Shown here in pieces: positions 4,276 through 41,440 of a DNA stretch of 64,000 bases. Each line of letters starts with the position of its first letter. Position 1 is the stretch's first letter. The notes under the pieces were generated by a model. It searched no databases. It saw only the letters and a program-made list of their open reading frames with translations, and was not told the DNA's origin. Source of the stretch: an uncultured Gammaproteobacteria bacterium (GTDB lineage Bacteria; Pseudomonadota; Gammaproteobacteria; UBA9214); the NCBI GenBank assembly GCA_963701505.1, contig CAVOZZ010000009.1, forward strand, positions 65,770-129,769, written 5' to 3'. The translations under genes were made by a program, and so were the position numbers.

Positions 4276-4658
4276 GGTGGCGTTGTCAGTCAATGGCATG
4301 GTTCCGCGGCTGTTTTATTCCGGTGCTGTCGCAGCAGCGCGGGTAGACAGGCACACCGTTATGGCTTGATCGGTGACAACCCCGACTACCCGCCGCTGGC
4401 TGTGGTGGTTCCCCGGTAACGGGGTTACGCTGCTGCTCGACTACGTCCAGCAGTTTATCAAAGGCCTCGATAAAAAGTCCCACACTCTCTGTGTGCAGCC
4501 TGTCCGCCCCATCACGGTGCCGCGTCACCCCCGATGAAGTTAATAAAAACGTAACATTCCCCCACTTTTACTTGAACAGGCAGCAGAGTAGACTTGCGCC
4601 GCAATGCTGTCACCCTCGATAAACCTGCCCCTGCAATTCCTCAACCTCTGGTTGACGC

Positions 4659-5118
4659 TTGCTGCTGATCTGGCTGATTGCCAACGGCACGCTGGCCACC
4701 GACACCGTGCTCACCGGCGTGGTGATCACCGCGGCCATCGCGCTGGCGTTCGCCGCCTATTCGCGCGTCTATAGCGTGATCCGCTGGTCGCCGCGGGTGA
4801 TCTACAATTACCTGCTTTACCTGGGCGTGTTTCTCCACGAACTGGTGAAGGCCAACCTTAACGTGATGCGGCTATGTGTTCAGCCGGCACATCGACATCC
4901 ACCCCGGCATCGTCGAGATCAAGACCCGCCTGGAGTCGCCCATCGGCCGCCTGGCACTGGCGAATTCCATCACGCTGACCCCGGGCACCCTGGTCGTGGA
5001 CATGCAGGGCGATTCGCTGTTCATCCACTGGATCAACGTCACCGCGACGGACCCGGTCGCGGCCACGCAGGCGATCGCCGGGCGCTTCGAGAAATACCTG
5101 AAGGTGATCTATGGCTGA
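4659..5118 (+). pseudogene. MrpE/MnhE-like antiporter subunit (MbxA-like), one frame change near 4866-4880
   Basis: ORF 4659..5129 (TTG start; N-terminal TM part ending HELVKANLNVMR) continues in ORF 4876..5118 (IDIHPGIVEIKTRLESPIGRLALANSITLTPGTLVVDM). This is typical MnhE. The stop overlaps the next start. Confidence 0.7.
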
Positions 5119-5371
5119 GATCGCCCTGAACATCGCTTTCGTGCTGATCTTCTTCAGCATCGTGTTCGGCATCATCCGTCTGGTCATCGGCCCCGACACG
5201 GTCGACCGGGTGGTCGCCGTCGACCTGCTGACCATCGTCGCCATCGCGGTGATCGCGCTGCTGGCACACATCGGCAACCGCTATATCTACCTCGATGTCG
5301 CCCTGGTCTACGGCCTGCTGAGTTTCCTCGGCGTGCTCGCGGTTGCCCGTTTCCTCGAAAAAGGCATCTAG
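5111..5371 (+). CDS. MrpF/MnhF-like subunit
   Basis: 86 aa, three TM segments. GPDTVDRVVAVDLL is the MnhF/PhaF signature region. The 8-nt start/stop overlap with the upstream gene suggests translational coupling. Confidence 0.8.
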   Translation: MAEIALNIAFVLIFFSIVFGIIRLVIGPDTVDRVVAVDLLTIVAIAVIALLAHIGNRYIYLDVALVYGLLSFLGVLAVARFLEKGI

Positions 5372-5393
5372 TCGCACAGGTAATTCACTGAAT

Positions 5394-5633
5394 ATGATCG
5401 TATTACTCACACTGCTGCTCTGTGGCGGCATCCTCATCAGCGGCCTGCTCGCCGTGCAGCTCGACAGCCTGGTCAGCGCGGTGATCAGCGCCGGCCTCGC
5501 CAGCCTGTTCGCTGCCGTGGTCTACGTGGTGCTGGCGGCGCCCGACGTTGCCATGACCGAGGCCTCGATCGGCTCGGGCCTGTCGACCATGATCTTTCTT
5601 TATGCCATCCGCAAGACGCGGGGCAAGGACTGA
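5394..5633 (+). CDS. small membrane subunit, MbhD/MrpB-N-terminal (DUF4040)-like
   Basis: ORF 5343..5633. The internal ATG at 5394 gives MIVLLTLLLCGGILISGL..., ~79 aa with 3 TM. The motif APDVAMTEASIGSGLSTMIF resembles the DUF4040 region of MnhB/MbhD. Confidence 0.6.
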   Translation: MIVLLTLLLCGGILISGLLAVQLDSLVSAVISAGLASLFAAVVYVVLAAPDVAMTEASIGSGLSTMIFLYAIRKTRGKD

Positions 5634-5636
5634 GCC

Positions 5637-5981
5637 ATGGGCGAGTTGATCGGCAGCCTGTTCCTGCTGGGTGGCTCGGTATTCCTGTTCTCGGCGGGTC
5701 TCGGCGTGCTGCGCATGCCGGACACCTATAACCGTATCCAGACCGGCACCAAGGCCACCACCCTGGGCACCATCCTGATCCTGATCGGTCTGGCCTTCCT
5801 GCACCCGGCCTGGACCTTCAAACTGATCATCCTGATCTTCTTCGTGATGCTTACCAACCCGGTGTCCTCGCACGCCCTGGCACGCGCCGCCCATGCCATC
5901 GGCACCGCAGAGACCGAGTCCACCGTGATCGACCAGCTGGAGGTCACCGCGAACGAAGACACCCGGGAGCAAGCGGAATGA
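5637..5981 (+). CDS. MrpG/MnhG-like subunit
   Basis: 114 aa. GVLRMPDTYNRIQTGTKATTLG is the classic MnhG/PhaG motif. Confidence 0.8.
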   Translation: MGELIGSLFLLGGSVFLFSAGLGVLRMPDTYNRIQTGTKATTLGTILILIGLAFLHPAWTFKLIILIFFVMLTNPVSSHALARAAHAIGTAETESTVIDQLEVTANEDTREQAE

Positions 5982-6015
5982 ACCGTGCAACGCCGCTGCC
6001 GGGTAGCGAGACCGT

Positions 6016-6756
6016 ATGATCAAGCGCATCGTCATCCTGCTGGTGCTGGTCATGCTGGCGATCATCTTTCTCGAGCTCGCGGCCAACTACAGCGAGAAAA
6101 CCTCGCTGTCACCACTGGGCCACTACTACGCCGAGCAGGGGCCATCGGAACTCGGCGCCGCCAACCTGGTGACTGCCGTGGTGGTCACCTACCGCGGCCT
6201 GGATACCCTGGGCGAGGTCACCGTGCTGTTCATCTCCGCTGCCGGTGTCGGCCTGCTGTTGCGCCGCACCCGGCGCACGGACGATGACGAAGATCTTGAA
6301 AAAGGCGACCGCGCCGAGGAAACCGCGGGCGCGCGCAAGCCCGCCAGTGAAATCGTCGAAACCGCCACCCAGCTGCTGCTACCGATGGTCATCCTGTTCG
6401 GCATCTACGTATTCCTGAACGGCCACCTGTCGCCCGGCGGCGGGTTCCAGGGCGGTGCCATCATCGCCTCCGGCACCATGTTCCTGTTGCTGGCCCTGCC
6501 CGAATCACACATCAGCCGCCTGATGATCGCCATGACCGAATCGCTCTCCGGCTTCAGCTACGTGGTCATCGGCGTGCTCGGCGTGCTGCTGGCAGGCGGT
6601 TTCCTCGACAACCGCATCATGGGCCTCGGCACCTACGGCAGTCTGTTCAGCGCCGGTGCCATACCGCTGATTTATGTGTTCGTCGGCATCAAGGTAGGCT
6701 TCGAACTCAGCGCGGTACTCGACCGCTTCCGCAAGGAGGACACGGGACCGTTATGA
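6016..6756 (+). CDS. MrpB/MnhB-like subunit (MbhE/F-like) with an acidic/basic linker
   Basis: 246 aa. Motifs NLVTAVVVTYRGLDTLGEVTVLF and GHLSPGGGFQGGAI are MnhB-domain signatures. The two halves are joined by a charged insert (RRTRRTDDDEDLEKGDRAEE). Confidence 0.75.
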   Translation: MIKRIVILLVLVMLAIIFLELAANYSEKTSLSPLGHYYAEQGPSELGAANLVTAVVVTYRGLDTLGEVTVLFISAAGVGLLLRRTRRTDDDEDLEKGDRAEETAGARKPASEIVETATQLLLPMVILFGIYVFLNGHLSPGGGFQGGAIIASGTMFLLLALPESHISRLMIAMTESLSGFSYVVIGVLGVLLAGGFLDNRIMGLGTYGSLFSAGAIPLIYVFVGIKVGFELSAVLDRFRKEDTGPL

Positions 6757-7133
6757 GTGTCCTCGCCGACATGCAGATTTCACTGATCGTGCTGTGCAGC
6801 GGCCTCGGCCTGGTCCTGATCGGGCTGTGGGGCATACTGACGCAACGCAATATCATTCGCATGATCATCGGCTTCTCGCTGCTGGATACCGGCATTCACA
6901 TGGTGATGGTATCCATCGGTTATGTCACCGGCGGCACCGCCCCCATCATCAACGACGCCGTGCCCATGGCCGAAGCCGTCAGCCGCGTCGTCGACCCGGT
7001 GCCGTCCGCGCTGGTGCTGACCGCCATCGTCATCGGCCTTGGCGTTACCGCCGTGATGCTGTCCTTCGCGGTACGCATGTACAGGGCACGCAGGACGCTG
7101 ATGATTGACGAGTTCACGGAGTCGAAATGGTAA
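6753..7133 (+). CDS. MrpC/MnhC (NuoK-like) subunit
   Basis: 126 aa, 3 TM. NIIRMIIGFSLLDTGIHMVMV is a NuoK/MnhC-type motif. Start and stop overlap both neighbours. Confidence 0.8.
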   Translation: MSVLADMQISLIVLCSGLGLVLIGLWGILTQRNIIRMIIGFSLLDTGIHMVMVSIGYVTGGTAPIINDAVPMAEAVSRVVDPVPSALVLTAIVIGLGVTAVMLSFAVRMYRARRTLMIDEFTESKW

Positions 7134-8440
7134 ACGCGCTGATGACAGAGGTACTGTTGCGGCCGCTGGGTATCTACGTGATCGCGCTCGGTGCGGGCTT
7201 CCTGATACCACTGTTTGACCGTGCACACCGCGGCTCGGCCATCCTGCTGTTCCTCGCGGCCCTCGCCGGCATGGTCGCCATTGCCGGCATCAACCTGCTG
7301 GCGATCCTGAACGGCGCAGCCGCCATCGAGATCGAAACCGCGGGCATTGCGCCGCCGTTTTCCATCAACCTGCGCTTCGGCCTGTATGAAGGCGGCTTTG
7401 TGCTTGCAGTCAACAGCATCGCGCTGCTGGGCGCCCTGCACTGGCTGCCGTCACTGCGGCAGCATGCCTCCGCGCTGTTGCTCTACCTCATCATGGTGAT
7501 GGGCATCAACGGCATGGTGATGACCCGCGACCTGTTCAACCTGTTCATTTTTATCGAGATTACCTCGATCGCCACCTACGCCCTGATCGGCATGGAGCGC
7601 AGCGGCGCGGTGCTCGCTGCCGGCTTCAAATACATCGTCGCGACCTCGGTGGCCTCGGCCTTCTTCCTGCTGGGCACGATCTTCCTGTATTACCTCACCG
7701 GTACGCTGAACATTGACGGCATGGTGGCACAGCGCGAGCTGATCAGTGGCCCGATCGGCTTCATCGCGACCCTGTTGCTGCTCACCAGCCTGCTGATCGA
7801 GCTCAAACCCTACCCCGCCAACGGCTGGGGACTGGACGTCTACGAGACGGCACCCGGCGGCATCGCCGCGCTGATCTCTGTCGGCGTCTCCGCCGGCGTG
7901 TTGTTCGCGTTGTTCAAGACACTGCCGCTGCTGGATGACTACCTGACGAGCATCGCCGTGGTCGGCGGCGCAACCTTCCTGGTCTCCAACCTGATCGGCC
8001 TGAAGCAGGACAACGCCAAACGCCTGCTCGGCTATTCCTCCATCGGCCAGATGGGCCTGCTGACACTGGCGCTGGCCGCGACGGCACAGCTTGGCAGCGA
8101 GTCACTGTTGCCGCTGATCGTGGGCGGCCTGTTCATCAATCATCTGCTGGCCAAGGCCGGGCTGTTCTGGCTGGCGGACGTGGTCAATCGCAAGACTACC
8201 CGGGACTGGTCGGTGCTCGCCGGGCGGCCCCTGCTGTTACTGGTGTTCGGTATCCTGCTGACCGCCCTGGTCGGTCTGCCACCTTTCCCCGGCTTCTGGG
8301 CCAAGTGGGTGCTGGTCATGGAACTCGCCACGGGTGGCCTGTACGGCTGGATTGCCGTGATCCTGCTGGGCTCGCTGCTGGAAGCCGCCTACCTGTTCCG
8401 CTGGTTTACGCAGGCGCTGGAGGCCCGGAAAACCGATGCC
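7127..8440 (+). CDS. MrpD/NuoM/N-type antiporter-like subunit 1 (MbxH-like); 3' end uncertain
   Basis: ORF 7127..8896. The first ~435 aa are a typical proton-conducting membrane transporter (FNLFIFIEITSIATYALI, LLGYSSIGQMG, PPFPGFWAKW). After ~8430 the reading becomes an Arg/Pro/Gly-rich tail that overlaps the next gene in another frame. The true stop has therefore been lost or shifted. Confidence 0.7.
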
Positions 8441-9818
8441 CCCGAGGCGCATCAGCCGCTGGAAACTGGCGCCCGTTGCCGTGGCCGCCCTGCTGCTGTT
8501 TGCCACCGGCTATGCCATGGCCATGCAACTCGAGAGCGACACCCTGGTCATGTTCCTGCCGCTGCTGGCCGGTGCCGCACTGTGGCTGCTGGACGGCCTG
8601 CCGGGCCGCCTGAAGAGCCTGCTGATGCTGGTGATAGTGGCCGCGGGCGGCGCCTGGCTGACGCTGGATCTCGAAGGCCTGAACCGTATCTTTGGCTTCA
8701 TCCTGGTCGGCGGCGGCGTGCTGGTGAGCCTCGCGACCCAGTACCGGGGCGATGCCCGCAAGGGCTTCTACCCGCTGCTGACCATCCTGCTGCTGTCGCT
8801 GGCGACACTGTTGTGCGCACACACCAGCCTGGCGTTCTTCTTCAGCTGGGAACTGATGACAGTGAGCTCCTACCTGCTGATCACCCTCGGCCGTAACGGC
8901 GTCAAGCCCTCACTGACCTACCTGCTGTTCTCGCTGGGTGCGGCCTATTGCATCCTTGCCGGTTTCGCCATCGCCTATGCGGCCACCGGCAGTCTTGAAC
9001 TGGCCGCACTCGGAGGCACGGGTGCGTCCACCGGCCTGGTATTCAGCCTGCTGGCGGCCGGCTTCCTCATCAAGACCGGCGCGCTCGGCGTGCATATCTG
9101 GGTGCCGGGCGCCTACGCGGAGGCCGACGACGACTTCAGCGCCTTGCTCTCCGCCGTGGTCAGCAAGGCCGCCATCTTTGGCCTGCTGCTGATTGCCGCA
9201 CAGCTCGGCGTGCGTTCCGACATCGGCCTCGACCCGGCCTACGTGCTCGGCTGGATCGGCATGCTTACCGCGACCTTCGGCGCGCTGATGGCCGTGTTCC
9301 AGGAAGACATCAAAAAACTGCTCGCCTACTCCAGCATGGGGCAGCTCGGCTATATCGTCACCGGCATCGCGCTGATGAGCCACCTCGGCTGGGTCTCCGC
9401 ACTGTACCTGACGGTGAACCACTTCCTCTTCAAGGGCATCCTGTTCCTCGCCGTCGCCGGCGTGGTACTGCGCACCAACCAGCGCTTCATGTACAAGATG
9501 GGTGGACTGATCAAGAACATGCCGTTCACCTTCGTCGCCACCATGATCGCCATCATCGCCATGTCCGGCGTGCCGCCGCTGACCGGTTTCGGCGGCAAGT
9601 GGCTGCTGTTCAACGCCATCATGGAAAAGGGCTGGTACTGGCTGGCCGCACTGGCGTTCTTCTCCAGCGCCGTCGCCTTCCTTTATATGTTCCGGCTGCT
9701 GCACACCGTCTTTCTCGGCCAGCGCAAGCTGGAGCATGCACAACTGCGCGAGGCGCCGGCGATCCTGCTGATTCCACAGTTCGTGCTGATCGGCATCATC
9801 ATGGTGTTTTCCGCCTAG
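8436..9818 (+). CDS. MrpD/NuoL-type antiporter-like subunit 2 (MbxH'-like)
   Basis: 460 aa. Motifs FFFSWELMTVSSYLLI, GVHIWVPGAYAEA, LLAYSSMGQLGYI and PPLTGFGGKW. It ends at TAG 9816-9818, which is in frame with the following ORF (see findings). Confidence 0.8.
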   Translation: MPPRRISRWKLAPVAVAALLLFATGYAMAMQLESDTLVMFLPLLAGAALWLLDGLPGRLKSLLMLVIVAAGGAWLTLDLEGLNRIFGFILVGGGVLVSLATQYRGDARKGFYPLLTILLLSLATLLCAHTSLAFFFSWELMTVSSYLLITLGRNGVKPSLTYLLFSLGAAYCILAGFAIAYAATGSLELAALGGTGASTGLVFSLLAAGFLIKTGALGVHIWVPGAYAEADDDFSALLSAVVSKAAIFGLLLIAAQLGVRSDIGLDPAYVLGWIGMLTATFGALMAVFQEDIKKLLAYSSMGQLGYIVTGIALMSHLGWVSALYLTVNHFLFKGILFLAVAGVVLRTNQRFMYKMGGLIKNMPFTFVATMIAIIAMSGVPPLTGFGGKWLLFNAIMEKGWYWLAALAFFSSAVAFLYMFRLLHTVFLGQRKLEHAQLREAPAILLIPQFVLIGIIMVFSA

Positions 9819-10286
9819 CCGAAACTGCTGCTCGAGCCGCTGTCGTCGGCCATCAGCCCGTGGCTGGCCGGCAACCTGGTGTGGGACGGCCTCTCGCTGC
9901 AGACCCATCTCGGCTACTGGAACGCACCCATGATCATGGGCGTCGTCGCCGGCGTGTGGATGGTGCCGCTGCTATTCCTGCTGCTGATGACGCTGACCCT
10001 GAAGATCCAGAAAGTCGGGCAGTTCAACATCGTGTTTGCCGCGGAGCGTCCGCATCGCCCGGAAGACACGCATTTCGCCTACAACTTCTTCGCGCACTAC
10101 GACCGGGCCCTCGGCATCCTGGTGCGGCCGCGCGCCACCGCTTTCTGGAAGTCCGTTGTCGAGTGGAGCCATTCCCTGGCCGCGTCCTTGCGGATTTTCT
10201 ATAACGGCAACGGCCAGACCTATGCACTGCATATCGTGATGTATCTGGTGGCGCTGTACCTGGTGAATGGAGGACTGCAGCTGTGA
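9819..10286 (+). CDS. either the C-terminal continuation of subunit 2 across an in-frame TAG, or a separate MbhI-like small membrane subunit (GTG 9879)
   Basis: Same frame as 8436..9818, with no further stop between 9819 and 9879. There are two or three TM segments (MIMGVVAGVWMVPLLFLLLMTL; IVMYLVALYLV). The stop overlaps the NuoH-like start. Confidence 0.55.
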   Translation, partial: PKLLLEPLSSAISPWLAGNLVWDGLSLQTHLGYWNAPMIMGVVAGVWMVPLLFLLLMTLTLKIQKVGQFNIVFAAERPHRPEDTHFAYNFFAHYDRALGILVRPRATAFWKSVVEWSHSLAASLRIFYNGNGQTYALHIVMYLVALYLVNGGLQL

Positions 10287-11209
10287 TTGCGGAATGGCTT
10301 GGCAGAATCGGTAATTTCAGCCTGACACTGCTGATCGTGGCCGTCTACGGACTGCTCGTGGGTGCCTTCATCGAACGCACCATCGCCAAGGTGCAGGGCC
10401 GCATCGGCATTCCCTACCGGCAACCGTTTATCAATATCCTGAAAACGCTGGTGAAGCGCACCGCCGTCAGTCACGGCATCATGTTCTACCTCGGGCCGGT
10501 GTTCCGCCTCGCCGGCGGCGTCGGTACGCTGGCCTTCATACCGGTGATCTACGGCAGCGACACCTTCGCGAATTTCAGCTACGCCGGCGACCTGTTCCTG
10601 GTGATCTACTTCATGTTCTTCGGCCAGCTCGGCATGGCGCTGGGCGCCGGCGAAAGCGGCCATCCCTACAGCGCCATCGGCATCGCCCGCGGCCTGTCGC
10701 AAATGACCGCCTACGAGGTGCCCTTCGCGCTGGCAGTGATCTCCATCGTCATCCAGTACGACACCCTGTCGATCACCGAGATCGTGGCCGCGCAGCAGGG
10801 CGGCTGGCAGCACTGGACGCTGTTCACCAACTGGGTGGCGACGCTGGCCGCGATGCTGGCATTTCTCGGCATGACCGGCTATTCGCCCTTCGACATCTTC
10901 CTGGCGCCGCAGGAGATACCGATTGGCCCGCCGACCGAGTTCCACAGCGCCTTCCTGTCGATGCTGCAGACCAACCGCGCCTTGTTCGGGGCCACCAAGC
11001 TGATCCTGTTCATGAACCTGTTTTTCGGCGGCGCCACCGGCTGGATCGAATTGATGATCAAAACCCTGGCAATCTACATGGTTGCAGTGGTCGTCGGTGT
11101 GGCGTTTCCGCGCTTCCGCGTCGACCAGTCGATCCGCTTCTTCTTCAAGTACCCGACACTCATCGGCATCGCGTCTATAGTGTATGTACAGATGGTAATC
11201 GCACCCTGA
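10283..11209 (+). CDS. NuoH-like membrane subunit (MbxM/MbhM/HyfC/CooK family)
   Basis: 308 aa, polytopic. Motifs IERTIAKVQGRIGIPYRQPFINILK and GESGHPYSAIGIARGLSQMTAYEVPFAL are NuoH/ND1-type. Confidence 0.85.
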   Translation: MIAEWLGRIGNFSLTLLIVAVYGLLVGAFIERTIAKVQGRIGIPYRQPFINILKTLVKRTAVSHGIMFYLGPVFRLAGGVGTLAFIPVIYGSDTFANFSYAGDLFLVIYFMFFGQLGMALGAGESGHPYSAIGIARGLSQMTAYEVPFALAVISIVIQYDTLSITEIVAAQQGGWQHWTLFTNWVATLAAMLAFLGMTGYSPFDIFLAPQEIPIGPPTEFHSAFLSMLQTNRALFGATKLILFMNLFFGGATGWIELMIKTLAIYMVAVVVGVAFPRFRVDQSIRFFFKYPTLIGIASIVYVQMVIAP

Positions 11210-11246
11210 AAACGCGGCGCGACATGCCGAGCGTGAGGACCTGACC

Positions 11247-11879
11247 ATGACAAAAGACCTGAGCACCGAAGCAACCCTGGAAAATGCCGGCTTATCCGTC
11301 GAGGACCGGCAGCTGTTCTCCAATGCGCGGCCGCGCGCCTATGAACCCTACCCGATCAAGGCGGTGGAGGATTTCGCCAACTGGGCGCGGGCGAATTCGC
11401 TGTGGATCCTGGCCTTCGGCACCGGCTGCTGCTCGATCGAGCTGCGCCCGCTGATGACGGCGCGCTTCGACGCCAGCCGCTTCGGTGTTGCCGGCCGGCC
11501 GACGCCGCGGCAGTCGTCGCTGTTCATCATCGGCGGCTACGTCTCGGTAAAAACGCTGAAGCGCATCGTGCGCAGCTACGAGCAGATGCAGGGGCCGAAA
11601 TTCATCATCGCGCTCGGCAGCTGTCCGGCCAACGGCGGCATGTACTTCGACAGCTACAACACCATCAACCAGTTCGACCTGTACCTGCCGGTGGACCTGT
11701 ACGTCACCGGCTGCATGCCGCGGCCGGAAGCGCTGCTCGGCGCCATCCTGGAACTGCAGGATGACATCAAGGCGGGCAAGTGTGACGGCGCCAACCGCTA
11801 TATCGAACACTTCGACGAATACAAGGCCAACCAGAAGAAGGTCATCAAGGACTGGAACATGCCGGATTACAACTGGTAA
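11247..11879 (+). CDS. NuoB-like [4Fe-4S] subunit (MbxJ / hydrogenase small-subunit-like)
   Basis: 210 aa. All four N2-type cluster Cys are present: GTGCCSIE (two), GSCPANGG, VTGCMPRPEAL. Confidence 0.9.
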   Translation: MTKDLSTEATLENAGLSVEDRQLFSNARPRAYEPYPIKAVEDFANWARANSLWILAFGTGCCSIELRPLMTARFDASRFGVAGRPTPRQSSLFIIGGYVSVKTLKRIVRSYEQMQGPKFIIALGSCPANGGMYFDSYNTINQFDLYLPVDLYVTGCMPRPEALLGAILELQDDIKAGKCDGANRYIEHFDEYKANQKKVIKDWNMPDYNW

Positions 11880-11914
11880 TCCCATGACACACGATCGAGC
11901 CCGGAAATACAATT

Positions 11915-12457
11915 ATGAGTGAACTGCTGGACAGACTGGTGCGCGATTTCGGTGTCACGGAGATCACCGAGCGCCTTCCGGCGATCACCACGCTGAAAGT
12001 GAGCAAGGAAAACGGCGAACGGCTGATCCGTGAACTGCGCGACCGCGAGGGCTTCACCCACCTGAATTTCATCGCCTGCACCGACTGGATCGAGGACGGC
12101 ATTTTCAGGCTGGTGTACATGCTGCACAACTACGACAGCAAACAGAACCTCGGCGTACACATCGACATCGACCGCGACAACGCCGAGATGACTTCCATCC
12201 ATACGCTGTGGGCGCAGGCCTGGACCTACCAGCGCGAACTGCGCGAGATGTACGGCATCCACTTTCCCGGCAGCCCGCGACTCGAGGAGAATTTCTGCCT
12301 CGAAGGCTGGGACGCAATGCCGCCGATGCGGCGTGATTTCGACACCGCGAAATACAGCGCGGAACGCTTCGGTCACCGCGAGGGCCGCGTCAGCCTGGTG
12401 CCGCGCGACCATATGAAGGTGCAGCTCTATCCGAATCGTGGAGGGGATAAGTCATGA
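11915..12457 (+). CDS. NuoC-like subunit (MbxK-like)
   Basis: 180 aa. Motifs FTHLNFIACTDW and TYQRELREMYGIHFPGSP are the NuoC/30 kDa family signature. Confidence 0.85.
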   Translation: MSELLDRLVRDFGVTEITERLPAITTLKVSKENGERLIRELRDREGFTHLNFIACTDWIEDGIFRLVYMLHNYDSKQNLGVHIDIDRDNAEMTSIHTLWAQAWTYQRELREMYGIHFPGSPRLEENFCLEGWDAMPPMRRDFDTAKYSAERFGHREGRVSLVPRDHMKVQLYPNRGGDKS

Positions 12458-13623
12458 CGTTATCAACCGGCCATTCCGCCGCGCTGGACTTCGCCCAGCC
12501 CGAACCGGTCGACCTGTCATCGGGTAAATACGTCAAGCTGTGGCAGGGTCCGCAGCATCCCGGCATCACCGGCAACATGTCGCTGGAACTGACACTGGAC
12601 GGCGACACCATCATCGAGTGCAAGACCCACGTCGGTTACCTGCACCGCGGCTTCGAGAAGCTGATGGAGCAGCGCAACTTTATCCAGAACTTCACCGTGG
12701 TGTGCCGCATCGCGGTTCCCGAACCGGCCTTCAACGAATACCTGTACGCGGCCGCGATCGAGGCGATCAGCGGCGTCGAGTCACCGCCGCGCGCGCAGTG
12801 GCTGCGCACGCTGAACCTCGAAATGATGCGCCTCGCCAGTTTCCTGATGTGGATCGGCGGCCAGGGCGGCGCCTTCGGCCAGTACACCGTGGCCAACTGG
12901 ACGCTCACCTACCGCGACTACGTGCTGGATCTGTTCGAGGAAATGACGGGCGCGCGCATCTACCACATGTACATGGTGCCCGGCGGCGTACGCGCCGGAC
13001 TGCCGGCTGGATTCGAGCAACGCATCCTCGAGCTGATGAACAACACCGACAAGCTGCTCGACCAGGTCGAGCGCGTGATGTACAACAACGTGGTGTTCAA
13101 GGCGCGCGCCAGGGGCCTCGGCGTGATTACCCCGGAACTGGTAGATCCGTACGGTGTGGTCGGTCCGAATGCGCGCGCCAGCGGTTTCCGCCGCGACCTG
13201 CGCAAGGACGAACCCTACCTGGTGTACGACCAGCTCGATTTCAGCGTCATCAGCGGCAGTGCCGGCGATGCCTACGAACGCGCCTGGCTGCGTTTGCAGG
13301 AAACCCGCCAGAGCATCAACCTGATCCGCCAGGTAATTGCCGGCGCACCGTCGGACGGTCCGTTCCAGGCAGACATGCCGAACTTGCTGCACTGGAAGGT
13401 GCCGGCCGGCGAGACCTACGTCAAGGCCGAGTGCACCCGCGGCGAATACGGCTACTACATGGTTACCGACGGCACCGAGATCGTGCGCCGCGTGCACGTG
13501 CGCGGTCCGAGCTACACCCATGCCATCGCATTGATGGAGCGCCTCGCGGTCGGCACCAACATCGCGGACATCGCCGGCCTGATGGTATCGCTGCACACCT
13601 ATCCGCCCGAGATTGAGAGGTAA
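12454..13623 (+). CDS. NuoD / [NiFe]-hydrogenase large-subunit-like catalytic subunit lacking the NiFe Cys ligand pairs (MbxL/Ehr-like)
   Basis: 389 aa. GPQHPGITGNMSLEL and GYLHRGFEKL are NuoD/group-4 motifs. The N-terminal RxCGxC position reads VVCRIAVPEP. The C-terminal DPCxxC position reads SLHTYPPEIER, with no Cys. Confidence 0.9.
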   Translation: MTLSTGHSAALDFAQPEPVDLSSGKYVKLWQGPQHPGITGNMSLELTLDGDTIIECKTHVGYLHRGFEKLMEQRNFIQNFTVVCRIAVPEPAFNEYLYAAAIEAISGVESPPRAQWLRTLNLEMMRLASFLMWIGGQGGAFGQYTVANWTLTYRDYVLDLFEEMTGARIYHMYMVPGGVRAGLPAGFEQRILELMNNTDKLLDQVERVMYNNVVFKARARGLGVITPELVDPYGVVGPNARASGFRRDLRKDEPYLVYDQLDFSVISGSAGDAYERAWLRLQETRQSINLIRQVIAGAPSDGPFQADMPNLLHWKVPAGETYVKAECTRGEYGYYMVTDGTEIVRRVHVRGPSYTHAIALMERLAVGTNIADIAGLMVSLHTYPPEIER

Positions 13624-13635
13624 GCAGTAAATATC

Positions 13636-15444
13636 ATGAGCCTGAAAGACCTGCTATCCCCGTTCTATGTCTGGCAACGCGCCTTCGAGAAACCCTATAC
13701 CTCCATCCGTCCGATCCAGGAGCGCCCCGGTGCGGCCGCCTATCGCGGCTTTCACATCAATATCAGCGAGGAATGCATCGGCTGCGGCACCTGCCACAAG
13801 ATCTGCCAGAACGACGCGATCGATATGGTCCGGGTCGAGGCATACGAAGGTCGCAGTGGCGACAGTGGCTTGCGCCCGCGCTTCGACTATGGCCGCTGCT
13901 GCTGGTGCGCCCTGTGCGTCGATATGTGTCCCGCCGGTTCCCTGCGCATGAGCAACGAGTACACCTGGATCACCAGCGACCCAACCACGTATCACTTCAC
14001 CGCGGGCGTTGAACACACCACCTGGCAGGAGAATCCGCTGGGCTACCGCCGCGCGGAAGGCTACCATCTCTACCCGCCCAAACGCATCGACATGGAGATG
14101 CGGCCACCGGCAGAGAGCGTACAGTCATTCGATGAAGTGGTGCTGGGCTACAGCGAGTCACAGGCGCTGCTGGAAGCCGACCGCTGCATCGAATGCGGCA
14201 TCTGCGTCGCCACCTGCCCGGCGCACATGGACGTTCCCGACTACATCCGCAGCATCCGTGACCGCGATTACGAGAAGGGTCTGCAGCTGATGTACCGCAC
14301 CAATCCCTTCCCCGCCACCTGCGGGCGCATCTGCACGCGCCGCTGCGAGTCGGTGTGCCCGGTTGGCATCCAGGGAGAACCGATCGCCATTCGCTGGCTG
14401 AAACGTTTCATCGTCGACCAGATCCAGCCGCAGGACTATGCGCGCATACTTGCCGACCAGAGCGGACACAGTGGCCGCCGCATCGCCATCATCGGCGCCG
14501 GCCCCGGTGGTCTGAGTGCCGCCTATTACCTGCGCAAGCAAGGCCACGCGGTGACGGTGTTCGAGGCGCAGGAAAGCGCCGGCGGCATGCTGCGCTACGG
14601 CGTGCCCAGCTACCGCCTGCCGGACGCGGATCTCGACAAGGACATCAATTACATCGTGTCACTCGGTGTGGACATCCGCTACAACACACGTGTCGGCAAG
14701 GACATCGCCTTCGAAGAACTGCTGCAGGACTACGATGCCCTGTTCCTGTCCACCGGCCTGTCGGTGCCCTCCAGCATGCGCATCCAGGGCGAGGACCATC
14801 CGCGCGTGCTGTCCGGCCTGCAGGTGCTTGCCGATGTCGCCAGCGGTCGCGACCCGGGCATCGGCCACAAGGTTGCCGTCATCGGCGGCGGCAACGTTGC
14901 CATGGACGCAGCACGGGTCGCGCGGCGTCTCGGCGCCGCTGTCACCATCCTCTACCGCCGTCGGATCGCCGACATGCCGGCGGATGTCGAGGAAATAAAC
15001 GAGTCACAGGAAGAAGGCTGCCGCATCGTCACCCAGGCGATCCCGGTTGAAATCATTGCGGCGGACAGCCCGCAACAGGTTGCGATCAAGTGGGGAGAAG
15101 CCGAAATGGTGCAGGACCCGAAAGGCGGCCGGCCACGCCCGGTGCTGCAGGAAGACAGGATGCATGTAGAAACTTACGACTGCATCGTCTCGGCCATCGG
15201 CCAAAGCAGCGACCTCGACTTCCTGTCAAAGGAGATACAGGACCAGCTGGCCATCGAGTGGGGCAAATTCACGCCGGGTGAATACCAGCACACATCGCTG
15301 GCGAAGATTTTCGCCGGCGGTGACGTCGCCAATCGCACCGCCGATGCCATCAGCGCCATCGAGGACGGCCATCATGCCGCGCGCGGCATCGACCGGTTCC
15401 TGAACCCGGATACCCGGATGCATACAGACGAGGAGGTGAACTGA
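13636..15444 (+). CDS. fusion protein: NuoI/MbxN-like 2x[4Fe-4S] ferredoxin domain + GltD/SudA/NfnB-like FAD/NAD(P)H oxidoreductase
   Basis: 602 aa. The N-terminus has CIGCGTCHKICQ and CCWCALCVDMCP. The GltD-type Fe-S region follows (CIECGICVATCP...CGRICTRRCESVCP). Then come two Rossmann motifs, IAIIGAGPGGLSAAYYL and VAVIGGGNVAMDAAR, and GGDV near the C-terminus. Confidence 0.85.
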   Translation: MSLKDLLSPFYVWQRAFEKPYTSIRPIQERPGAAAYRGFHINISEECIGCGTCHKICQNDAIDMVRVEAYEGRSGDSGLRPRFDYGRCCWCALCVDMCPAGSLRMSNEYTWITSDPTTYHFTAGVEHTTWQENPLGYRRAEGYHLYPPKRIDMEMRPPAESVQSFDEVVLGYSESQALLEADRCIECGICVATCPAHMDVPDYIRSIRDRDYEKGLQLMYRTNPFPATCGRICTRRCESVCPVGIQGEPIAIRWLKRFIVDQIQPQDYARILADQSGHSGRRIAIIGAGPGGLSAAYYLRKQGHAVTVFEAQESAGGMLRYGVPSYRLPDADLDKDINYIVSLGVDIRYNTRVGKDIAFEELLQDYDALFLSTGLSVPSSMRIQGEDHPRVLSGLQVLADVASGRDPGIGHKVAVIGGGNVAMDAARVARRLGAAVTILYRRRIADMPADVEEINESQEEGCRIVTQAIPVEIIAADSPQQVAIKWGEAEMVQDPKGGRPRPVLQEDRMHVETYDCIVSAIGQSSDLDFLSKEIQDQLAIEWGKFTPGEYQHTSLAKIFAGGDVANRTADAISAIEDGHHAARGIDRFLNPDTRMHTDEEVN

Positions 15445-15445
15445 C

Positions 15446-15892
15446 ATGAACAGCGTGGATGAAATACTCGACTATGCCATTGACCAGGAACAGCAGGCCG
15501 CTGACTTCTACGCGGAGCTGGCCGGCCGCGCCGAAAAGGCCGGCATGAAAGATATCCTGCTGGATTTCTCCGCAGAGGAACAAAGCCACAAGCAACGACT
15601 GCTGGCGGTAAAGGCCGGTGACCACGAGCTGACACCGGAACAGCAGGTGCTGGACCTGAAGATCTCCGACTACCTTGTCGAGGTCGGCGCCAGCGCCAAC
15701 ATCTCCTACCAGGACGCCCTGATCGTCGCCATGAAACGTGAACGTGCTGCCTTCCAGCTGTACAGCGACATGGCCGCAAAGGTTCCGGAGGGCCATCTGA
15801 AGGAAGTCCTGCAGGGCCTCGCCAAGGAAGAGGCCAAGCACAAGCTGTTCTTTGAATCCGAGTACGACGAGCGCGTCTTGATGGATAACTAG
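15446..15892 (+). CDS. rubrerythrin/ferritin-like diiron four-helix-bundle protein (no rubredoxin domain)
   Basis: 148 aa. Two E-x-x-H motifs (EEQSH, EEAKH), each preceded by a helix carrying a conserved Glu (ADFYAEL, MKRERAAF). The start lies 1 nt after the upstream stop. Confidence 0.7.
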   Translation: MNSVDEILDYAIDQEQQAADFYAELAGRAEKAGMKDILLDFSAEEQSHKQRLLAVKAGDHELTPEQQVLDLKISDYLVEVGASANISYQDALIVAMKRERAAFQLYSDMAAKVPEGHLKEVLQGLAKEEAKHKLFFESEYDERVLMDN

Positions 15893-16075
15893 TGCTCTTC
15901 CCGCCTGATACCAACGGTATGCTGAACTGTAGTTAAACTGGGCACCAAATTTTTTTACTGGCCACGGAAGCACACGGAATTACACGGAAAAAAGTATTTT
16001 ATGGTTTTTATTCTTCCGTGTTTTCCGTGTGTTTTCGTGGCAATCCTGTCCGTCTTTATCAGATTGAGGCAGTGC
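15890..16075. repeat. left copy of a ~190 bp inverted repeat flanking ppsA; contains the palindromic CACGGAA-rich core (15961-16041)
   Basis: Aligns by eye at roughly three-quarters identity with the reverse complement of 18600-18794. Matching stretches include tagtgctctt..., gctgaac, gggcacc(a/c)aattt, ccacggaagcacacgg and atcctgtccgtctttat(c/t)agattgaggcagt. Confidence 0.8.
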
Positions 16076-16158
16076 TCCGCAGGCTGGGCTTCGTACCTCA
16101 GCCCAACCTGCAAATGACTTTTTTCTGTATTTTCTAAATACACCCGGGGGGCAGACCA

Positions 16159-18582
16159 ATGCAGCAGTTCGAGTACGTACGCCGTTTTCGGGAGCTCGGC
16201 ATCGACGACGTGTCGCTGGTCGGCGGCAAGAATGCCTCACTGGGGGAGATGTACCAGGCCCTGTCGGGTGAAGGCGTCAGGGTTCCCAACGGCTTTGCCA
16301 CCACGGCACAGGCCTATCGCGACTACCTGACACACAACCAACTGGAGGCACCCATTCAGCAGGCGCTGGCACAGCTGGATGTCGATGATGTCGATGCGCT
16401 GGCCAAAACCGGCGCGCAGATACGCGGCTGGATCGTCGACGCGGAACTGCCGCCACAGCTGGTCAGCGAGATTACCGCTGCCTACGCGGAGATGACCGCA
16501 GAATACGGCGTTGATACCGATGTTGCCGTGCGCAGTTCGGCAACCGCCGAAGACCTGCCGGATGCCTCCTTTGCCGGCCAGCAGGAGACCTATCTGAATA
16601 TCTGCGGCACGGAGCACCTGCTGCGTACCTGCAAGCGGGTGCTGGCCTCGCTGTTCACGGACCGCGCCATTCATTACCGTGTCGACAAGGGCTTTGAGCA
16701 CATGAGCATTGCGCTGTCCATCGGAGTGCAGAAGATGGTGCGTTCCGACCTTGGTGCCTCGGGTGTGATGTTTACCCTCGACACGGAGAGCGGTTTCCGC
16801 GACGTGGTCATGGTCACCTCGGCCTACGGCCTGGGCGAGAATGTCGTACAGGGCGCGGTCAATCCGGACGAGTTCCTGGTGTTCAAGCCGACCCTGGAAC
16901 AGGAAAAGCGGCCCATTATCCGTCGCCACCTCGGTGAAAAGGCCATCAAGATGATCTACACAAAGGATCCGGTCACGGCCGAGGCCACCCGCAACGTCGC
17001 GGTGAAAAAGTCGGAACAGCAACGCTTCTCGATCAGCGATGACGAGGTGCTGCAGCTGGCGCGCTACGCCACCATCATCGAGCGTCACTATTCCGCACAT
17101 GCCGGCAAGCCGCGCCCCATGGATATTGAATGGGCAAAGGACGGCATCAGCGGTGAACTGTTTATCGTGCAGGCGCGCCCGGAAACCGTGCACTCGATGC
17201 GCAGCGATGCCTTCCAGGAGATCTACAGCATCAAGGAACGCGGCAAGGTACTGACACAGGGCAAGAGTGTCGGCGCCAAGGTGGGTGCCGGGCGGGCACG
17301 CATTATCCTCGAAGCGGCACACATGCATGACCTGCTGCCGGGCGAGGTGCTGGTCACCGATATTACCGACCCGGACTGGGAACCGGTCATGAAGATCGCC
17401 AGCGCCATTGTCACCAATCGTGGCGGCCGTGTCTGCCATGCGGCGATCGTAGCACGCGAACTCGGTATCCCGGCCGTGGTCGGCAGCGTTGACGCCACCC
17501 ATGACATCCCGGACGGCCAGGAGGTCACGGTCTCCTGTGTCGAGGGGGATACCGGTTTTGTCTATGAGGGCCTGCTGCCCTACTCCAGTGAACGGGTTGA
17601 CCTGGGCGGACTGCAGCGCCCGCAAACCCGCATTATGCTGATCGTCGGCAACCCGGTGCAGGCGCTGGAATTTGCGGCCTTCCCGAATGACGGCGTCGGT
17701 CTGGCGCGACTGGAATTCATCATCAACAACAGCATCGGCATTCACCCGCGTGCCATCCTGGAACACACCCGCCTGGACGAGGATATCCAGCAACAGATTG
17801 CCAGCCGCTCCGCAGGTTATGCCAGTCCACGCGATTTCTACATCAACCGGCTGGCCGAGGGCGTCGGCACCATTGCCGCGGCCTTCTATCCAAAACCGGT
17901 GACCGCTCGCCTCAGCGATTTCAAGTCAAATGAATACGCCGCCCTGCTCGGCGGTGAAGGTTTCGAGCCGCGCGAGGAAAACCCCATGATCGGCTTTCGC
18001 GGTGCCAGCCGCTATCACTCGGATGCCTTTGCAGAGTGTTTTGCACTGGAATGCGCCGCCATGAAGAAGGTGCGTGAGGAAATGGGGCTCGATAACCTGG
18101 AATTGATGATTCCCTTTGCCCGCACGGTCGGGGAAGTACAGCAGGTACTGGAGGTGATGTCACGGCAGGGCCTGCGGCGGGGAGAAAACGGACTGAAGAT
18201 CAAGCTGATGTGCGAGATCCCGGCCAATGCGCTACTCGCCAGCCAGTTTCTCGAACACTGTGACGGTTTCTCCATCGGTTCCAACGACCTGACCCAGCTG
18301 ACGCTCGGTGTGGACCGCGACTCCGGGTTGCTGAGCGGTTATGACGAACGCAACGAGGCCGTCACTGCCCTGATGGGGATGGCCATCAAGGCCTGCCAGG
18401 CAGCCGGCAAGTTTGTCGGTATCTGCGGGCAGGCGCCCTCCGATTTTCCGGAGGTTACCCGCTGGCTGGTGCAACAGGGGATCGAGTCCATTTCACTCAA
18501 CCCGGACAGTATTCTGAAGATGACCGGGGTCGTGCTGGAAATAGAACGCGAACTGCACCGGGGCAACAGCGACAGCCCTTGA
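16159..18582 (+). CDS. ppsA: phosphoenolpyruvate synthase (pyruvate, water dikinase)
   Basis: Uninterrupted 807 aa ORF. Motifs VGGKNASLGEMY (ATP-grasp N-terminus), TNRGGRVCHAAIVARELGIPAVVG (phosphohistidine domain) and the C-terminal PEP-utilising domain GFSIGSNDLTQL. Confidence 0.95.
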   Translation: MQQFEYVRRFRELGIDDVSLVGGKNASLGEMYQALSGEGVRVPNGFATTAQAYRDYLTHNQLEAPIQQALAQLDVDDVDALAKTGAQIRGWIVDAELPPQLVSEITAAYAEMTAEYGVDTDVAVRSSATAEDLPDASFAGQQETYLNICGTEHLLRTCKRVLASLFTDRAIHYRVDKGFEHMSIALSIGVQKMVRSDLGASGVMFTLDTESGFRDVVMVTSAYGLGENVVQGAVNPDEFLVFKPTLEQEKRPIIRRHLGEKAIKMIYTKDPVTAEATRNVAVKKSEQQRFSISDDEVLQLARYATIIERHYSAHAGKPRPMDIEWAKDGISGELFIVQARPETVHSMRSDAFQEIYSIKERGKVLTQGKSVGAKVGAGRARIILEAAHMHDLLPGEVLVTDITDPDWEPVMKIASAIVTNRGGRVCHAAIVARELGIPAVVGSVDATHDIPDGQEVTVSCVEGDTGFVYEGLLPYSSERVDLGGLQRPQTRIMLIVGNPVQALEFAAFPNDGVGLARLEFIINNSIGIHPRAILEHTRLDEDIQQQIASRSAGYASPRDFYINRLAEGVGTIAAAFYPKPVTARLSDFKSNEYAALLGGEGFEPREENPMIGFRGASRYHSDAFAECFALECAAMKKVREEMGLDNLELMIPFARTVGEVQQVLEVMSRQGLRRGENGLKIKLMCEIPANALLASQFLEHCDGFSIGSNDLTQLTLGVDRDSGLLSGYDERNEAVTALMGMAIKACQAAGKFVGICGQAPSDFPEVTRWLVQQGIESISLNPDSILKMTGVVLEIERELHRGNSDSP

Positions 18583-18599: not shown

Positions 18600-18794
18600 G
18601 TACTGCCTCAATCTAATAAAGACGGACAGGATAGCCACGGAAGCACACGGGATTACACGGGATTACACGCAAAAAAGTATTTTATGGTATTTATTCTTCC
18701 GTGTTTTTCCGTGTGCTTCCGTGGCGATTAAATAAATTGGGTGCCCAACGTAATGTCGTTCAGCACCGGTTATTATCAGGTTGAAAGAGCACTA
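18600..18794. repeat. right copy (inverted) of the ppsA-flanking repeat; core 18634-18725 with a 10-bp tandem duplication (gattacacgg x2)
   Basis: See the left copy. The flanks are reverse-complemented relative to the left copy. The asymmetric centre of the core (aaaaaagtattttatggt.tttattcttccgtg) is in the same + orientation in both copies. Confidence 0.8.
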
Positions 18795-19809: not shown

Positions 19810-19837
19810 GGCGTTATCCTCTGTTATTCAGTTTCGC

Positions 19838-25141
<5,304 letters not shown>

Positions 25142-25877
25142 GTCGGGTGGATCTCCTGGAAACCGGTAGCACGGCACGGTATGTCGGCAGCCGCCCGAAA
25201 AGTTGTTCCTGTCATCATTGAGCGGCGCCGGTCTTCTTCCTGGTGTGCGGATGACCCGAGCTACAGGATGCCGGCACTCCCTTGCCGTGACTCGTTGCCG
25301 GCATCTTAAACAGCACGGCGTGCCGCAGCAACAAGACACAGTGCGGAGAATCATTACAATCCTGTTACAGCAGCGGCGGGATAAAAAAAGGACTGTATCA
25401 GCGGATCGAAAATATGTTCTTATCTACCACACGGGACGCCGGGATACTACCGGGTCGAGGCAGCGACATCAGCGCAGGCGCCGGATACCAAGATGGGAAA
25501 AGCGACTTTCTGCATAAGCCGTCAGATTCAGCAACTGGGCCAGCGTGTCAATGTGCGTCTCACCATACAGGATAATCAGGCATTGCAGGCAGTCCCTGGC
25601 ATCTTCCGGTGACCAGCATGGGTGTTTGCAGAGGTGATTGCTTCACCGGCGTGCTCCTGCATGATCTGTGCCCCCGTGGACAGATAGCCATGGCGGATAG
25701 TATATGAACAGAACAGAGTATATAGCATATTTCCCCTGCACCGGTTAACAATCATCCACGGGGATGTGCTGGATTATGGCGTCTGCAGGCAGGGCTGCGA
25801 GCCATGCAGTGGGGCAAGCAACGCTATACACCCGGTGACAACAGAGATAACAGAGACAACAACAGCGGAGCACACCC

Positions 25878-33036: not shown

Positions 33037-33110
33037 TGGCCAACGAAGCACACGGAAAGACACGGAACAATAAATGCCTGACTAGAAAGTTTTCCGTGCG
33101 CTTCCATGGC
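33037..33110. repeat. degenerate copy of the CACGGAA-rich palindromic element
   Basis: ggccaacgaagcacacggaaagacacggaac...gttttccgtgcgcttccatggc. It is intergenic, between the LolA-like gene and the first permease gene. Confidence 0.6.
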
Positions 33111-37695: not shown

Positions 37696-37797
37696 GCCAC
37701 GGAAACACACGGAATGACACGGAATTATTCCGGCAAGGCATTTCTTCTTCTGTGCCTTTCTGTGCCTTTCCGTGAGTTTCAGTGTGTTTCCGTCGCT
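37696..37797. repeat. degenerate copy of the CACGGAA-rich palindromic element
   Basis: ccacggaaacacacggaatgacacggaatt...ttccgtgagtttcagtgtgtttccgtcgc. It is intergenic, between the convergent OMP gene and cbbO. Confidence 0.6.
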
Positions 37798-41034: not shown

Positions 41035-41057
41035 AACGCACCCTTTTCCAGTCGTTG

Positions 41058-41369
41058 TTACTTGTCATCGTAGGTTTCCAGTTCACCTGACCAGCCGGCC
41101 TGCTTTGCCTCGGCGATTGCCTTGGCATGTATTCGCCGGTGGCGCTCACGCAAGTCCGCGGGTAAGAGGCTGACCATGCAGCCATATTTGTCCCATTCGG
41201 CATTGACCTTGTCCAGCAGGACATCAACCTGGCCCTGGTTCCAGCCCGCGCAGGTTTCCGTTTCCGGAATCAATTCAAACACCCAGGCATCACGAATAAT
41301 CTTCCCGATGGTGGTCATCGCACCATGGACATCATTGTCAATTCCTACGTATGTACGTGGTTTTGTCAT
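41058..41369 (-). CDS. hypothetical 103-aa soluble protein embedded between cbbS and cbbQ
   Basis: Intact ORF (MTKPRTYVGIDNDVHGAMTTIGKIIRDAWVFELIPETETCAGWNQGQVDVLL...). Its codon usage looks like that of its neighbours. I recognised no family. The 23-nt gap to cbbQ suggests co-transcription. Confidence 0.55.
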   Translation of the reverse strand: MTKPRTYVGIDNDVHGAMTTIGKIIRDAWVFELIPETETCAGWNQGQVDVLLDKVNAEWDKYGCMVSLLPADLRERHRRIHAKAIAEAKQAGWSGELETYDDK

Positions 41370-41370
41370 G

Positions 41371-41415: not shown

Positions 41416-41440
41416 GATCAATCGCTCCTGACCGTACGAC

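Follow-up and report, generated by a model that had tools for sequence, protein, structure and literature searches.

A gene fusing NuoI-like and NfnB/GltD-like domains in an MBS/Mbx-type operon of an uncultured gammaproteobacterium

The Fused Gene and Its Operon

A gene encoding a single protein of 602 residues, in which a NuoI-type iron-sulfur domain is joined to a flavoprotein of the NfnB/GltD type, occurs in the genome of an uncultured gammaproteobacterium of the lineage UBA9214 (assembly GCA_963701505.1). It lies at 13636-15444 (+) of a 64,000-nucleotide stretch of contig CAVOZZ010000009.1 (positions 65,770 to 129,769), which is referred to here as the window and to which all coordinates refer unless another contig is named. 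The gene is the penultimate one, and the last with a catalytic product, in a compact operon of the 13-gene Mrp-Mbx(MBS) type extending over 4659-15892 (+). MBS, the membrane-bound sulfane reductase of Pyrococcus furiosus, was formerly known as Mbx, and the window operon shows both its subunit set and its gene order, mbsABCDEGHH'MJKLN (Table 1).

Both in the window and in each related locus with upstream DNA, the fused gene directly follows the nuoD/mbxL-like gene, and tblastn searches revealed the same mrp and nuoH-B-C-D-I gene order in every one of these loci. On the basis of its sequence and position, the gene product is assigned as the N subunit of an Mbx/MBS-type operon, occupying the place of NuoI or MbsN. 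A scan of the region 4200-16300 for promoters and terminators yielded nothing above chance and the operon boundaries rest, therefore, on gene spacing and synteny.

Table 1. Domains of the fused protein, genes of the operon and fragmented genes of the window, with the matches supporting each assignment.
Feature	Position in window	Strand	Supporting match
MrpE/MbsA-like membrane subunit, first operon gene	4659..5129	+	Pfam MNHE 5e-10; conserved upstream of the fusion in relatives
MrpF/MbsB-like subunit	5111..5371	+	Pfam MrpF_PhaF 5e-18; syntenic in relatives
MbhD-type subunit	5343..5633	+	Pfam MbhD 2.5e-18
MrpG/MbsC-like subunit	5637..5981	+	Pfam PhaG_MnhG_YufB 7e-26
MbhE + MnhB-type subunit	6016..6756	+	Pfam MnhB 1.5e-21, MbhE 1.7e-10
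NuoK/MrpC (MbsG)-like subunit	6753..7133	+	Pfam Oxidored_q2 1.3e-23
Antiporter-like MbsH + MbsH' homologue, interrupted	7127..10286	+	Proton_antipo_M twice; 9879-10286 is the end of PRK08668
NuoH/MbsM-like membrane anchor of the peripheral arm	10283..11209	+	Pfam NADHdh 2.8e-47
NuoB/MbsJ-like subunit, proximal [4Fe-4S]	11247..11879	+	Best solved match 6U8Y_J, 5e-59
NuoC/MbsK-like subunit	11915..12457	+	Pfam Complex1_30kDa 7e-25
NuoD/MbsL-like subunit	12454..13623	+	Best solved match 6U8Y_L, 8e-92
Fused protein: NuoI/MbsN-type domain, two [4Fe-4S] motifs, residues 1-113	13636..13974	+	6U8Y_N matches residues 6-112, 1.3e-18
Fused protein: linker, residues 114-150	13975..14085	+	No Pfam/NCBIfam domain match
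Fused protein: NfnB/GltD N-terminal domain, two [4Fe-4S], residues 151-275	14086..14460	+	Fer4_20 5e-29; aligns with 4YLF_B, 5JCA_L, 6S6S_G
Fused protein: FAD + NADPH-binding Rossmann domains, residues 276-602	14461..15444	+	Pyr_redox_2 2e-31; Foldseek 5JCA_L
Rubrerythrin/ferritin-like di-iron protein, 148 residues, last operon gene	15446..15892	+	Pfam Rubrerythrin 9e-12
Fragmented genes	19824-23507 (-), 25878-28484 (+), 44541-46524 (-), 2194-4299 (-), 28892-29683 (+), 30576-31565 (-)

Architecture of the Fused Subunit

The gene starts with ATG and carries no internal stop codon. Pfam searches with the 602-residue protein placed a 4Fe-4S dicluster domain at residues 44-105, a Fer4_20 domain, characteristic of GltD and dihydropyrimidine dehydrogenase (DPD), at 163-264 and a Pyr_redox_2 domain at 282-578, while the NCBIfam models for NuoI and for proteins of the GltD/gltA type covered residues 6-115 and 149-590, respectively. 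The NuoI-type domain carries two cysteine motifs, C47-x2-C50-x2-C53-x3-C57 and C88-x2-C91-x2-C94-x3-C98P, and all eight cysteines align with the cluster cysteines of MbsN. Eight further cysteines, at positions 184, 187, 190, 194, 229, 233, 237 and 241, lie in the GltD-type domain, and the two dinucleotide-binding folds are marked by the glycine motifs GAGPGG (287-292) and GGGNVA (417-422). Alignments with other fusions sharing 38-58% sequence identity with the window protein showed that the 16 cysteines and both glycine motifs are invariant.

The region homologous to NfnB starts near residue 150, which leaves a linker of approximately 35-40 residues (about 113-150). Its conservation is lower than that of the domains, both among close homologues (0.78 against 0.86-0.88) and among distant ones (0.40 against 0.57-0.67), its length is roughly constant, and aromatic and glycine positions within it are conserved. 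The AlphaFold2 model gives the linker pLDDT values of 65-79, so that no disorder is predicted for it. For the whole protein the model is compact, with a mean pLDDT of 85.4 and a pTM of 0.82. A Foldseek search superposed the C-terminal 450 or so residues on the large subunit of NfnI (5JCA_L, the best match) with a TM score of 0.87, a root mean square deviation of 2.6 A and 36% identity; no solved chain found in this search spanned both the NuoI-like and the NfnB-like domains.

A first-pass annotation of this DNA, made from the letters and a list of open reading frames, had described a single uninterrupted reading frame carrying a NuoI-type domain, a GltD iron-sulfur region and both dinucleotide folds, and had read it as an MbxN/NuoI-type subunit fused to an NAD(P)H flavoprotein of the GltD/NfnB type in an Mbh/Mbx-type setting. 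The domain searches, the cysteine and glycine motifs and the best matches of the NuoD-, NuoB- and NuoI-like parts, which are to chains of MBS, bear out this description, except that the linker had been estimated at about 60 residues and is shorter.

The C-terminal module is closer to NfnB-type subunits (5JCA_L, 4YLF_B, 9N5U_A, 9BOV_A and 8OH5_C; about 1e-82 and 36-38% identity) than to true GltD (5e-53, 26-27%). In its second Rossmann fold, strand beta-2 terminates in YRRR (residues 440-443), and the YRR motif recurs in 70 of 79 related loci, while in another branch, to which the Thermosipho type belongs, S/A-L-E with an insertion takes its place. In folds of the thioredoxin-reductase and GltD type, a YRRR-like motif is of the kind that binds the 2'-phosphate of NADPH. 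Since the window protein has this motif, we infer that it belongs to an NADPH-specific branch and uses NADPH rather than NADH, and the S/A-L-E sequence suggests that members of the other branch use NADH.

Authenticity and Distribution of the Fusion

Adjacent nuoI-like and gltD-like genes could, in principle, have been merged in the assembly by a sequencing indel, and the window is rich in broken genes, including those for pyruvate:ferredoxin oxidoreductase (PFOR), glucan phosphorylase, AprA, a GlgX-like protein and the antiporter-like subunit, which implies that indel errors or gene decay are common. Such an origin for the fusion is, nevertheless, refuted and we give it a negligible chance. 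An independent metagenome contig of 4.8 kb from the Joint Genome Institute (L081), with 98.9% DNA identity to the window, encodes the identical 602-residue protein intact; the two genes differ at two nucleotides, both in third codon positions. The best 120 matches in a protein collection clustered at 90% identity are all about 600 residues long with 98-100% query coverage, and an exhaustive HMMER search of representatives clustered at 50% identity yielded about eleven separate, divergent clusters which are full length. One of the more distant cluster representatives is a protein of Thermosipho melanesiensis (Thermotogae; ABR31076.1), which aligns over the full length with 43-45% identity. Moreover, NCBIfam includes a curated model that covers the full length.

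A scan of species-representative genomes yielded at least 578 confirmed relatives, and the best 80 loci, for which alone the fusion is claimed since the remainder could include unfused NuoI-type genes, all carry it, in 76 cases with a match of essentially full length and in four with one truncated at a contig edge. Their hosts belong to the Gammaproteobacteria (48-88% identity), Spirochaetota, Cloacimonadota, Bacteroidota, Chlorobiota, Deferribacteres and Marinimicrobia. Thus, the 602-residue gene is a real and conserved fusion, neither split in an independent sequence nor confined to this assembly.

The Peripheral-Arm Active Site

Among solved structures, the NuoD-like subunit is closest to MbsL (6U8Y_L, 8e-92), followed by Nqo4 (9e-67) and MbhL (6e-38); for the NuoB-like subunit and the NuoI-like domain the best matches are likewise to MBS chains, MbsJ and MbsN (Table 1). 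The L subunit of MBS has lost two of the four cysteines that coordinate a [NiFe] site and also lacks the quinone-binding residues His38 and Tyr87 of Nqo4 (Yu et al. 2020, PMC7684303). In the window NuoD-like subunit these two quinone ligands are replaced by Thr and Val, respectively, and they are also absent from all relatives that were examined. Of the four [NiFe] cysteine positions one is kept (VVC84RIA), while C85 and C385 of MbsL align with Ala and Tyr; this pattern extends to the family as a whole, in which some members retain a CxxC motif or the C385 equivalent. A hydrogenase function was considered and rejected, three of the four [NiFe] cysteines being missing.

The proximal [4Fe-4S] cluster of MBS, in MbsJ, is held by three cysteines only and S-S bonds are proposed to be cleaved at its free iron, while C25 of MbsJ and C85 and C385 of MbsL were found to be dispensable (Yu et al. 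2020, PMC7684303). Most of the family studied here shows the sequence FGTGCGA[IV]E in the NuoB-like subunit, where the position of MbsJ C25 is Gly and the equivalent of C28 is kept. Together with two downstream cysteines, equivalent to C126 and C156, members of the FGTGCGAIE type have three cysteines and no spare cysteine nearby. A three-cysteine proximal cluster of this kind would constitute the strongest sequence argument that the family carries out MBS-like cluster chemistry and not the reduction of quinone or protons.

The window protein differs in this region. Its sequence is FGTGCCSIE, with a tandem Cys61-Cys62 (11427-11432) that aligns exactly on the cysteines of cluster N2 in NdhK and Nqo6. 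The same tandem recurs in the related locus L001 and on the independent contig L081, as well as in 18 of the 120 cluster representatives (79-89% identity), and it is therefore no sequence error and marks a real sub-clade.

The Rubrerythrin-Like Protein and the Host

The last gene of the operon starts 2 nt beyond the stop codon of the fused gene and encodes a rubrerythrin-like protein lacking a rubredoxin domain. Wherever a gammaproteobacterial locus continues beyond the fused gene, the rubrerythrin-like gene follows immediately, with the exception of one locus (L011), and it also occupies this position in some Spirochaetota and Bacteroidota loci. A search of the PDB with its sequence yielded only spurious matches to TALE repeats. 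One protein of 764 residues (P0128) is a triple fusion in which NuoI-like and NfnB-like domains are followed by a C-terminal rubrerythrin-like domain with 25% identity to the window gene product (E 1e-10). By the Rosetta-stone argument, this fusion ties the rubrerythrin-like protein functionally to the flavoprotein, and it may serve as an accessory electron acceptor or as a protector against peroxide.

Genes for a form I RuBisCO large subunit, a CbbQ/GvpN-like AAA protein, AprA and sulfate adenylyltransferase (Sat) are present at 40222-48440 (-). Given RuBisCO, AprA and Sat, the host is taken to be a sulfur-oxidising autotrophic gammaproteobacterium, and a contig in ENA which carries an identical NuoH-like protein (L082) is labelled Gammaproteobacteria_UBA9214. 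The operon is surrounded by genes for glycogen debranching, glucan phosphorylase, pyruvate kinase, PFOR and phosphoenolpyruvate (PEP) synthase. In a Thiotrichales metagenome-assembled genome (L013, 12408-19874), the operon is followed by genes for phosphoglucomutase, a NuoE-NuoF fusion, a 2Fe-2S protein resembling the N-terminal part of NuoG and an amylase/debranching enzyme; an NADH-oxidising NuoEF-like module thus lies near the operon in that genome.

Elsewhere in the window, at 23426-25354 (-), a second NfnB/GltD-like protein is encoded, which matches PRK12771 above its cut-off (535 bits). It adjoins the fragmented PFOR gene (19824-23507 (-)) and a dihydroorotate-dehydrogenase-like gene (PRK07565, 18904-19809 (-)) and may constitute a separate NAD(P)H-linked module for pyruvate:ferredoxin metabolism. 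An intergenic palindrome resembling repetitive extragenic palindromic elements, built of CACGGAA units spaced at 10 nt, recurs at 15961-16041, 18636-18723, 33041-33108 and 37698-37794; the motif has 16 matches where 0.12 would be expected by chance, and two copies of the palindrome flank the PEP synthase gene.

Several genes of the window are interrupted. In four relatives (L001, L013, L004 and L006) the MbsH/MbsH' homologue is one open reading frame of 1045-1152 residues, whereas in the window tblastn and DNA alignment located one extra base near 8446-8449 that shifts the frame (+1), and a TAG codon at 9816-9818 where about 55 relatives keep a conserved codon for Tyr, Trp or Phe. An exact look-up of the truncated MbsH' product of 460 residues produced no record, and contig L082 ends before the TAG. 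The breaks reflect either sequencing errors or a pseudogene. In addition, the genes for a nifJ-type PFOR, an alpha-glucan phosphorylase, AprA and a GlgX-like protein are split into adjacent reading frames corresponding to consecutive parts of one model, and those for pyruvate kinase and KefC are partial. The window is thus either an indel-rich, error-prone assembly or a sample of genome decay.

Proposed Electron Path and Alternative Functions

We propose, with a probability of roughly 0.7, that the fused protein serves an MBS/Mbx-type complex as its N subunit, linked to NAD(P)H, and that it contributes to a linear electron wire. Electrons would pass, in either direction, between NADPH, FAD, the two [4Fe-4S] clusters of the NfnB-like domain, the two of the NuoI-like domain and the proximal [4Fe-4S] cluster of the NuoB-like subunit, and from there to or from a substrate bound in a chamber made by the NuoB-, NuoD- and NuoH-like subunits, where turnover would be coupled to H+ or Na+ movement via the Mrp-like arm. 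The fused module would then stand in for NuoEFG of complex I, or for the free ferredoxin used by the archaeal MBS, and an MBS-like oxidoreductase that translocates ions would have NADP(H) instead of ferredoxin as its soluble partner. The suggestion in the first-pass annotation that a pyridine nucleotide is the soluble redox partner is a reasonable one.

For the membrane-side substrate, sulfane sulfur or polysulfide is a tentative choice, to which we assign somewhat less than an even chance. It is the best guess because the complex is closest to MBS, has neither the quinone His/Tyr pair nor a [NiFe] site and shows, in most of the family, a three-cysteine proximal cluster. An indirect experimental hint comes from Thermotoga maritima, in which the mbx operon, homologous to that of MBS, is induced 4.4-fold by elemental sulfur (mbxA). 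The direction of electron flow could be towards sulfur, with NADPH-driven reduction disposing of reductant, for example during the anoxic use of stored glycogen, and the presence of glycogen genes beside the operon in two lineages (the window and L013) would fit the disposal of reductant onto stored sulfur under anoxia. It could equally be the reverse, with an ion gradient driving the reduction of NADP+ in a sulfur-oxidising autotroph.

Several points weigh against this proposal. The tandem Cys-Cys could restore a four-cysteine proximal cluster, contrary to MBS-type chemistry in the window organism, and neither of the cysteines that MbsL has kept is present in the window L subunit, although MbsL was found not to require them. 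On standard potentials, the difference between NADPH and polysulfide is only about 50-100 mV, which leaves little energy for pumping compared with a ferredoxin-driven MBS; it follows that the complex may pump little or run backwards. Finally, the frameshift and stop codon in the antiporter-like gene may render the complex non-functional in the present assembly.

The older model for Mbx envisages an ion-pumping ferredoxin:NADP+ oxidoreductase, similar to Rnf, in which ferredoxin docks at the NuoI-like domain, electrons leave through the flavoprotein and the energy drives the Mrp-like arm. Both Mbx and the gltD-fused bacterial form have been interpreted in this way in the literature, many of the hosts are fermenters that need to reoxidise ferredoxin (Spirochaetota, Cloacimonadota, Thermotogae) and a PFOR gene lies nearby in the window. 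However, later work on Mbx of P. furiosus showed it to be a sulfane reductase and not a ferredoxin:NADP+ oxidoreductase. Furthermore, coupling in complex-I-type machines occurs at the proximal cluster and substrate chamber, and the postulated route would bypass the strictly conserved NuoB/D/H module; the compact predicted structure also implies that the ferredoxin docking surface is probably occupied by the fused domain. We regard this function as unlikely. A role as an NADPH:quinone oxidoreductase, in which a GltD-type input module would serve an alternative form of complex I, appears improbable. The exact alignment of GCCS[IV]E, in the window and in the 18 representatives, on the N2 tandem cysteines would favour it especially for that sub-clade, as would a respiring, sulfur-oxidising autotrophic host, but the head-group ligands are missing throughout and all of the peripheral subunits are nearer to MBS than to complex I/NDH-1.

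The affinity of the C-terminal module to bifurcating NfnB-type subunits, closer than that to GltD, raises the question of flavin-based bifurcation or confurcation, with the NfnB-like FAD splitting or merging branches of low and high potential, as the first-pass annotation had allowed. Bifurcation by Nfn requires a second acceptor close to the flavin, namely the [2Fe-2S] cluster of NfnA which leads to a second FAD. No NfnA- or SudB-like gene occurs in or beside the operon (4659-15892), and the gene order conserved in the 80 loci leaves no room for one, so that the flavin has a single visible outlet, the [4Fe-4S] chain. The eight cysteines of the NfnB-like domain are all present and would feed this one linear chain, and GltD and DPD, which do not bifurcate, share the fold. 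This part of the earlier interpretation we therefore judge very improbable. A glutamate synthase was also considered and rejected: the operon contains no GltB, and the protein scores 198 and 255 bits against TIGR01317 and TIGR01318, for which the cut-offs are 448 and 483.

Returning to the proposed NADPH-linked, MBS-type complex, a more far-reaching scheme is that it runs in reverse in sulfur-oxidising autotrophic Gammaproteobacteria, where an H+ or Na+ gradient would drive electrons from sulfide or polysulfide, at a potential of about -270 mV, to NADP+. Linked to this is the notion that the sub-clade with the GCC sequence represents a living intermediate between the sulfur-reducing MBS and the quinone-reducing complex I. 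The scheme is speculative and we hold it to be improbable; if it is true, reverse running would yield NADPH for CO2 fixation at a much lower cost than the uphill transfer of electrons from quinol through complex I.

Relation to Known Systems

Operons of this general layout have been described as mbx-like operons of Thermotoga and proteobacteria, in which a gltD-related flavoprotein takes the place of NuoI and a rubrerythrin gene is terminal, and the gltD-like subunit was already interpreted as the NAD(P) site (Degli Esposti 2015, PMC4758237). The window operon shares with them the domain fusion, its position after nuoD and the terminal rubrerythrin-like gene. It differs in that its host is a sulfur-oxidising autotroph and not a fermenter, in the tandem Cys-Cys of its NuoB-like subunit and, relative to the Thermosipho-type branch with its S/A-L-E sequence and insertion, in belonging to the YRR branch. 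Residues 2-591 of the fused protein match positions 7-608 of the 611 in the NCBIfam model NF010590/PRK13984 ('putative oxidoreductase') with an E value of 3.7e-206. Since its score of 686 bits lies below the equivalog cut-off of 946 bits, the protein represents a divergent branch with the same architecture and is not an equivalog of the PRK13984 seeds. A paper on a reductive tricarboxylic acid cycle cluster was set aside because it concerns a different GltD-like gene. The novelty implied by the first-pass annotation does not, therefore, hold: the architecture is already known and is widespread in bacteria, and the window adds an NADPH-type, tandem-cysteine example from an autotrophic sulfur oxidiser and no new kind of system.

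The MBS of P. furiosus (6U8Y) is the nearest characterised complex with respect to gene order, subunit set and the L, J and N parts, and the two are alike in lacking a [NiFe] site and the quinone His/Tyr pair; most of the family also has the motif that would leave three cysteines for the proximal cluster, as in MBS. MbsN is a stand-alone, ferredoxin-dependent subunit of 208 residues, whereas its counterpart in the window is fused to an NADPH flavoprotein. The window operon departs from MBS also in the Ala and Tyr residues that replace C85 and C385 of MbsL, in Gly at the position of MbsJ C25 with, in the sub-clade, a second Cys after the C28 equivalent, and in the extra rubrerythrin-like gene. 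In the four bacterial relatives that were compared, a single gene encodes both MbsH and MbsH'.

Residues of about 150-590 resemble the large subunit of Nfn (NfnB, 4YLF_B; NfnI, 5JCA_L), with two [4Fe-4S] clusters, FAD and an NADPH site (about 1e-82, 36-37% identity, TM scores of 0.86-0.87), but the window operon lacks an NfnA-type small subunit, and the iron-sulfur chain runs into the NuoI-type domain and not to a ferredoxin site. GltD (6S6S_G) has the same fold and the same role in passing electrons from NADPH to iron-sulfur clusters, at the lower identity given above and with GltB as a partner that the window operon lacks. Complex I/NDH-1 shares homologous NuoH, B, C, D, I and K and antiporter-like subunits and, with the window sub-clade, the N2-like tandem Cys-Cys, but NuoEFG and the quinone ligands are missing from the window operon, its membrane arm is of the Mrp type and its peripheral subunits are nearer to those of MBS.

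The fused subunit appears to mark a large and phylogenetically broad family of complex-I-like enzymes whose soluble partner is apparently NAD(P)H and not ferredoxin. Their function would alter metabolic reconstructions both of uncultured anaerobes, among the Cloacimonadota, Spirochaetota, Marinimicrobia and Bacteroidota, and of sulfur-oxidising Gammaproteobacteria, and it bears on the evolutionary exchange of the electron-input module of complex I.

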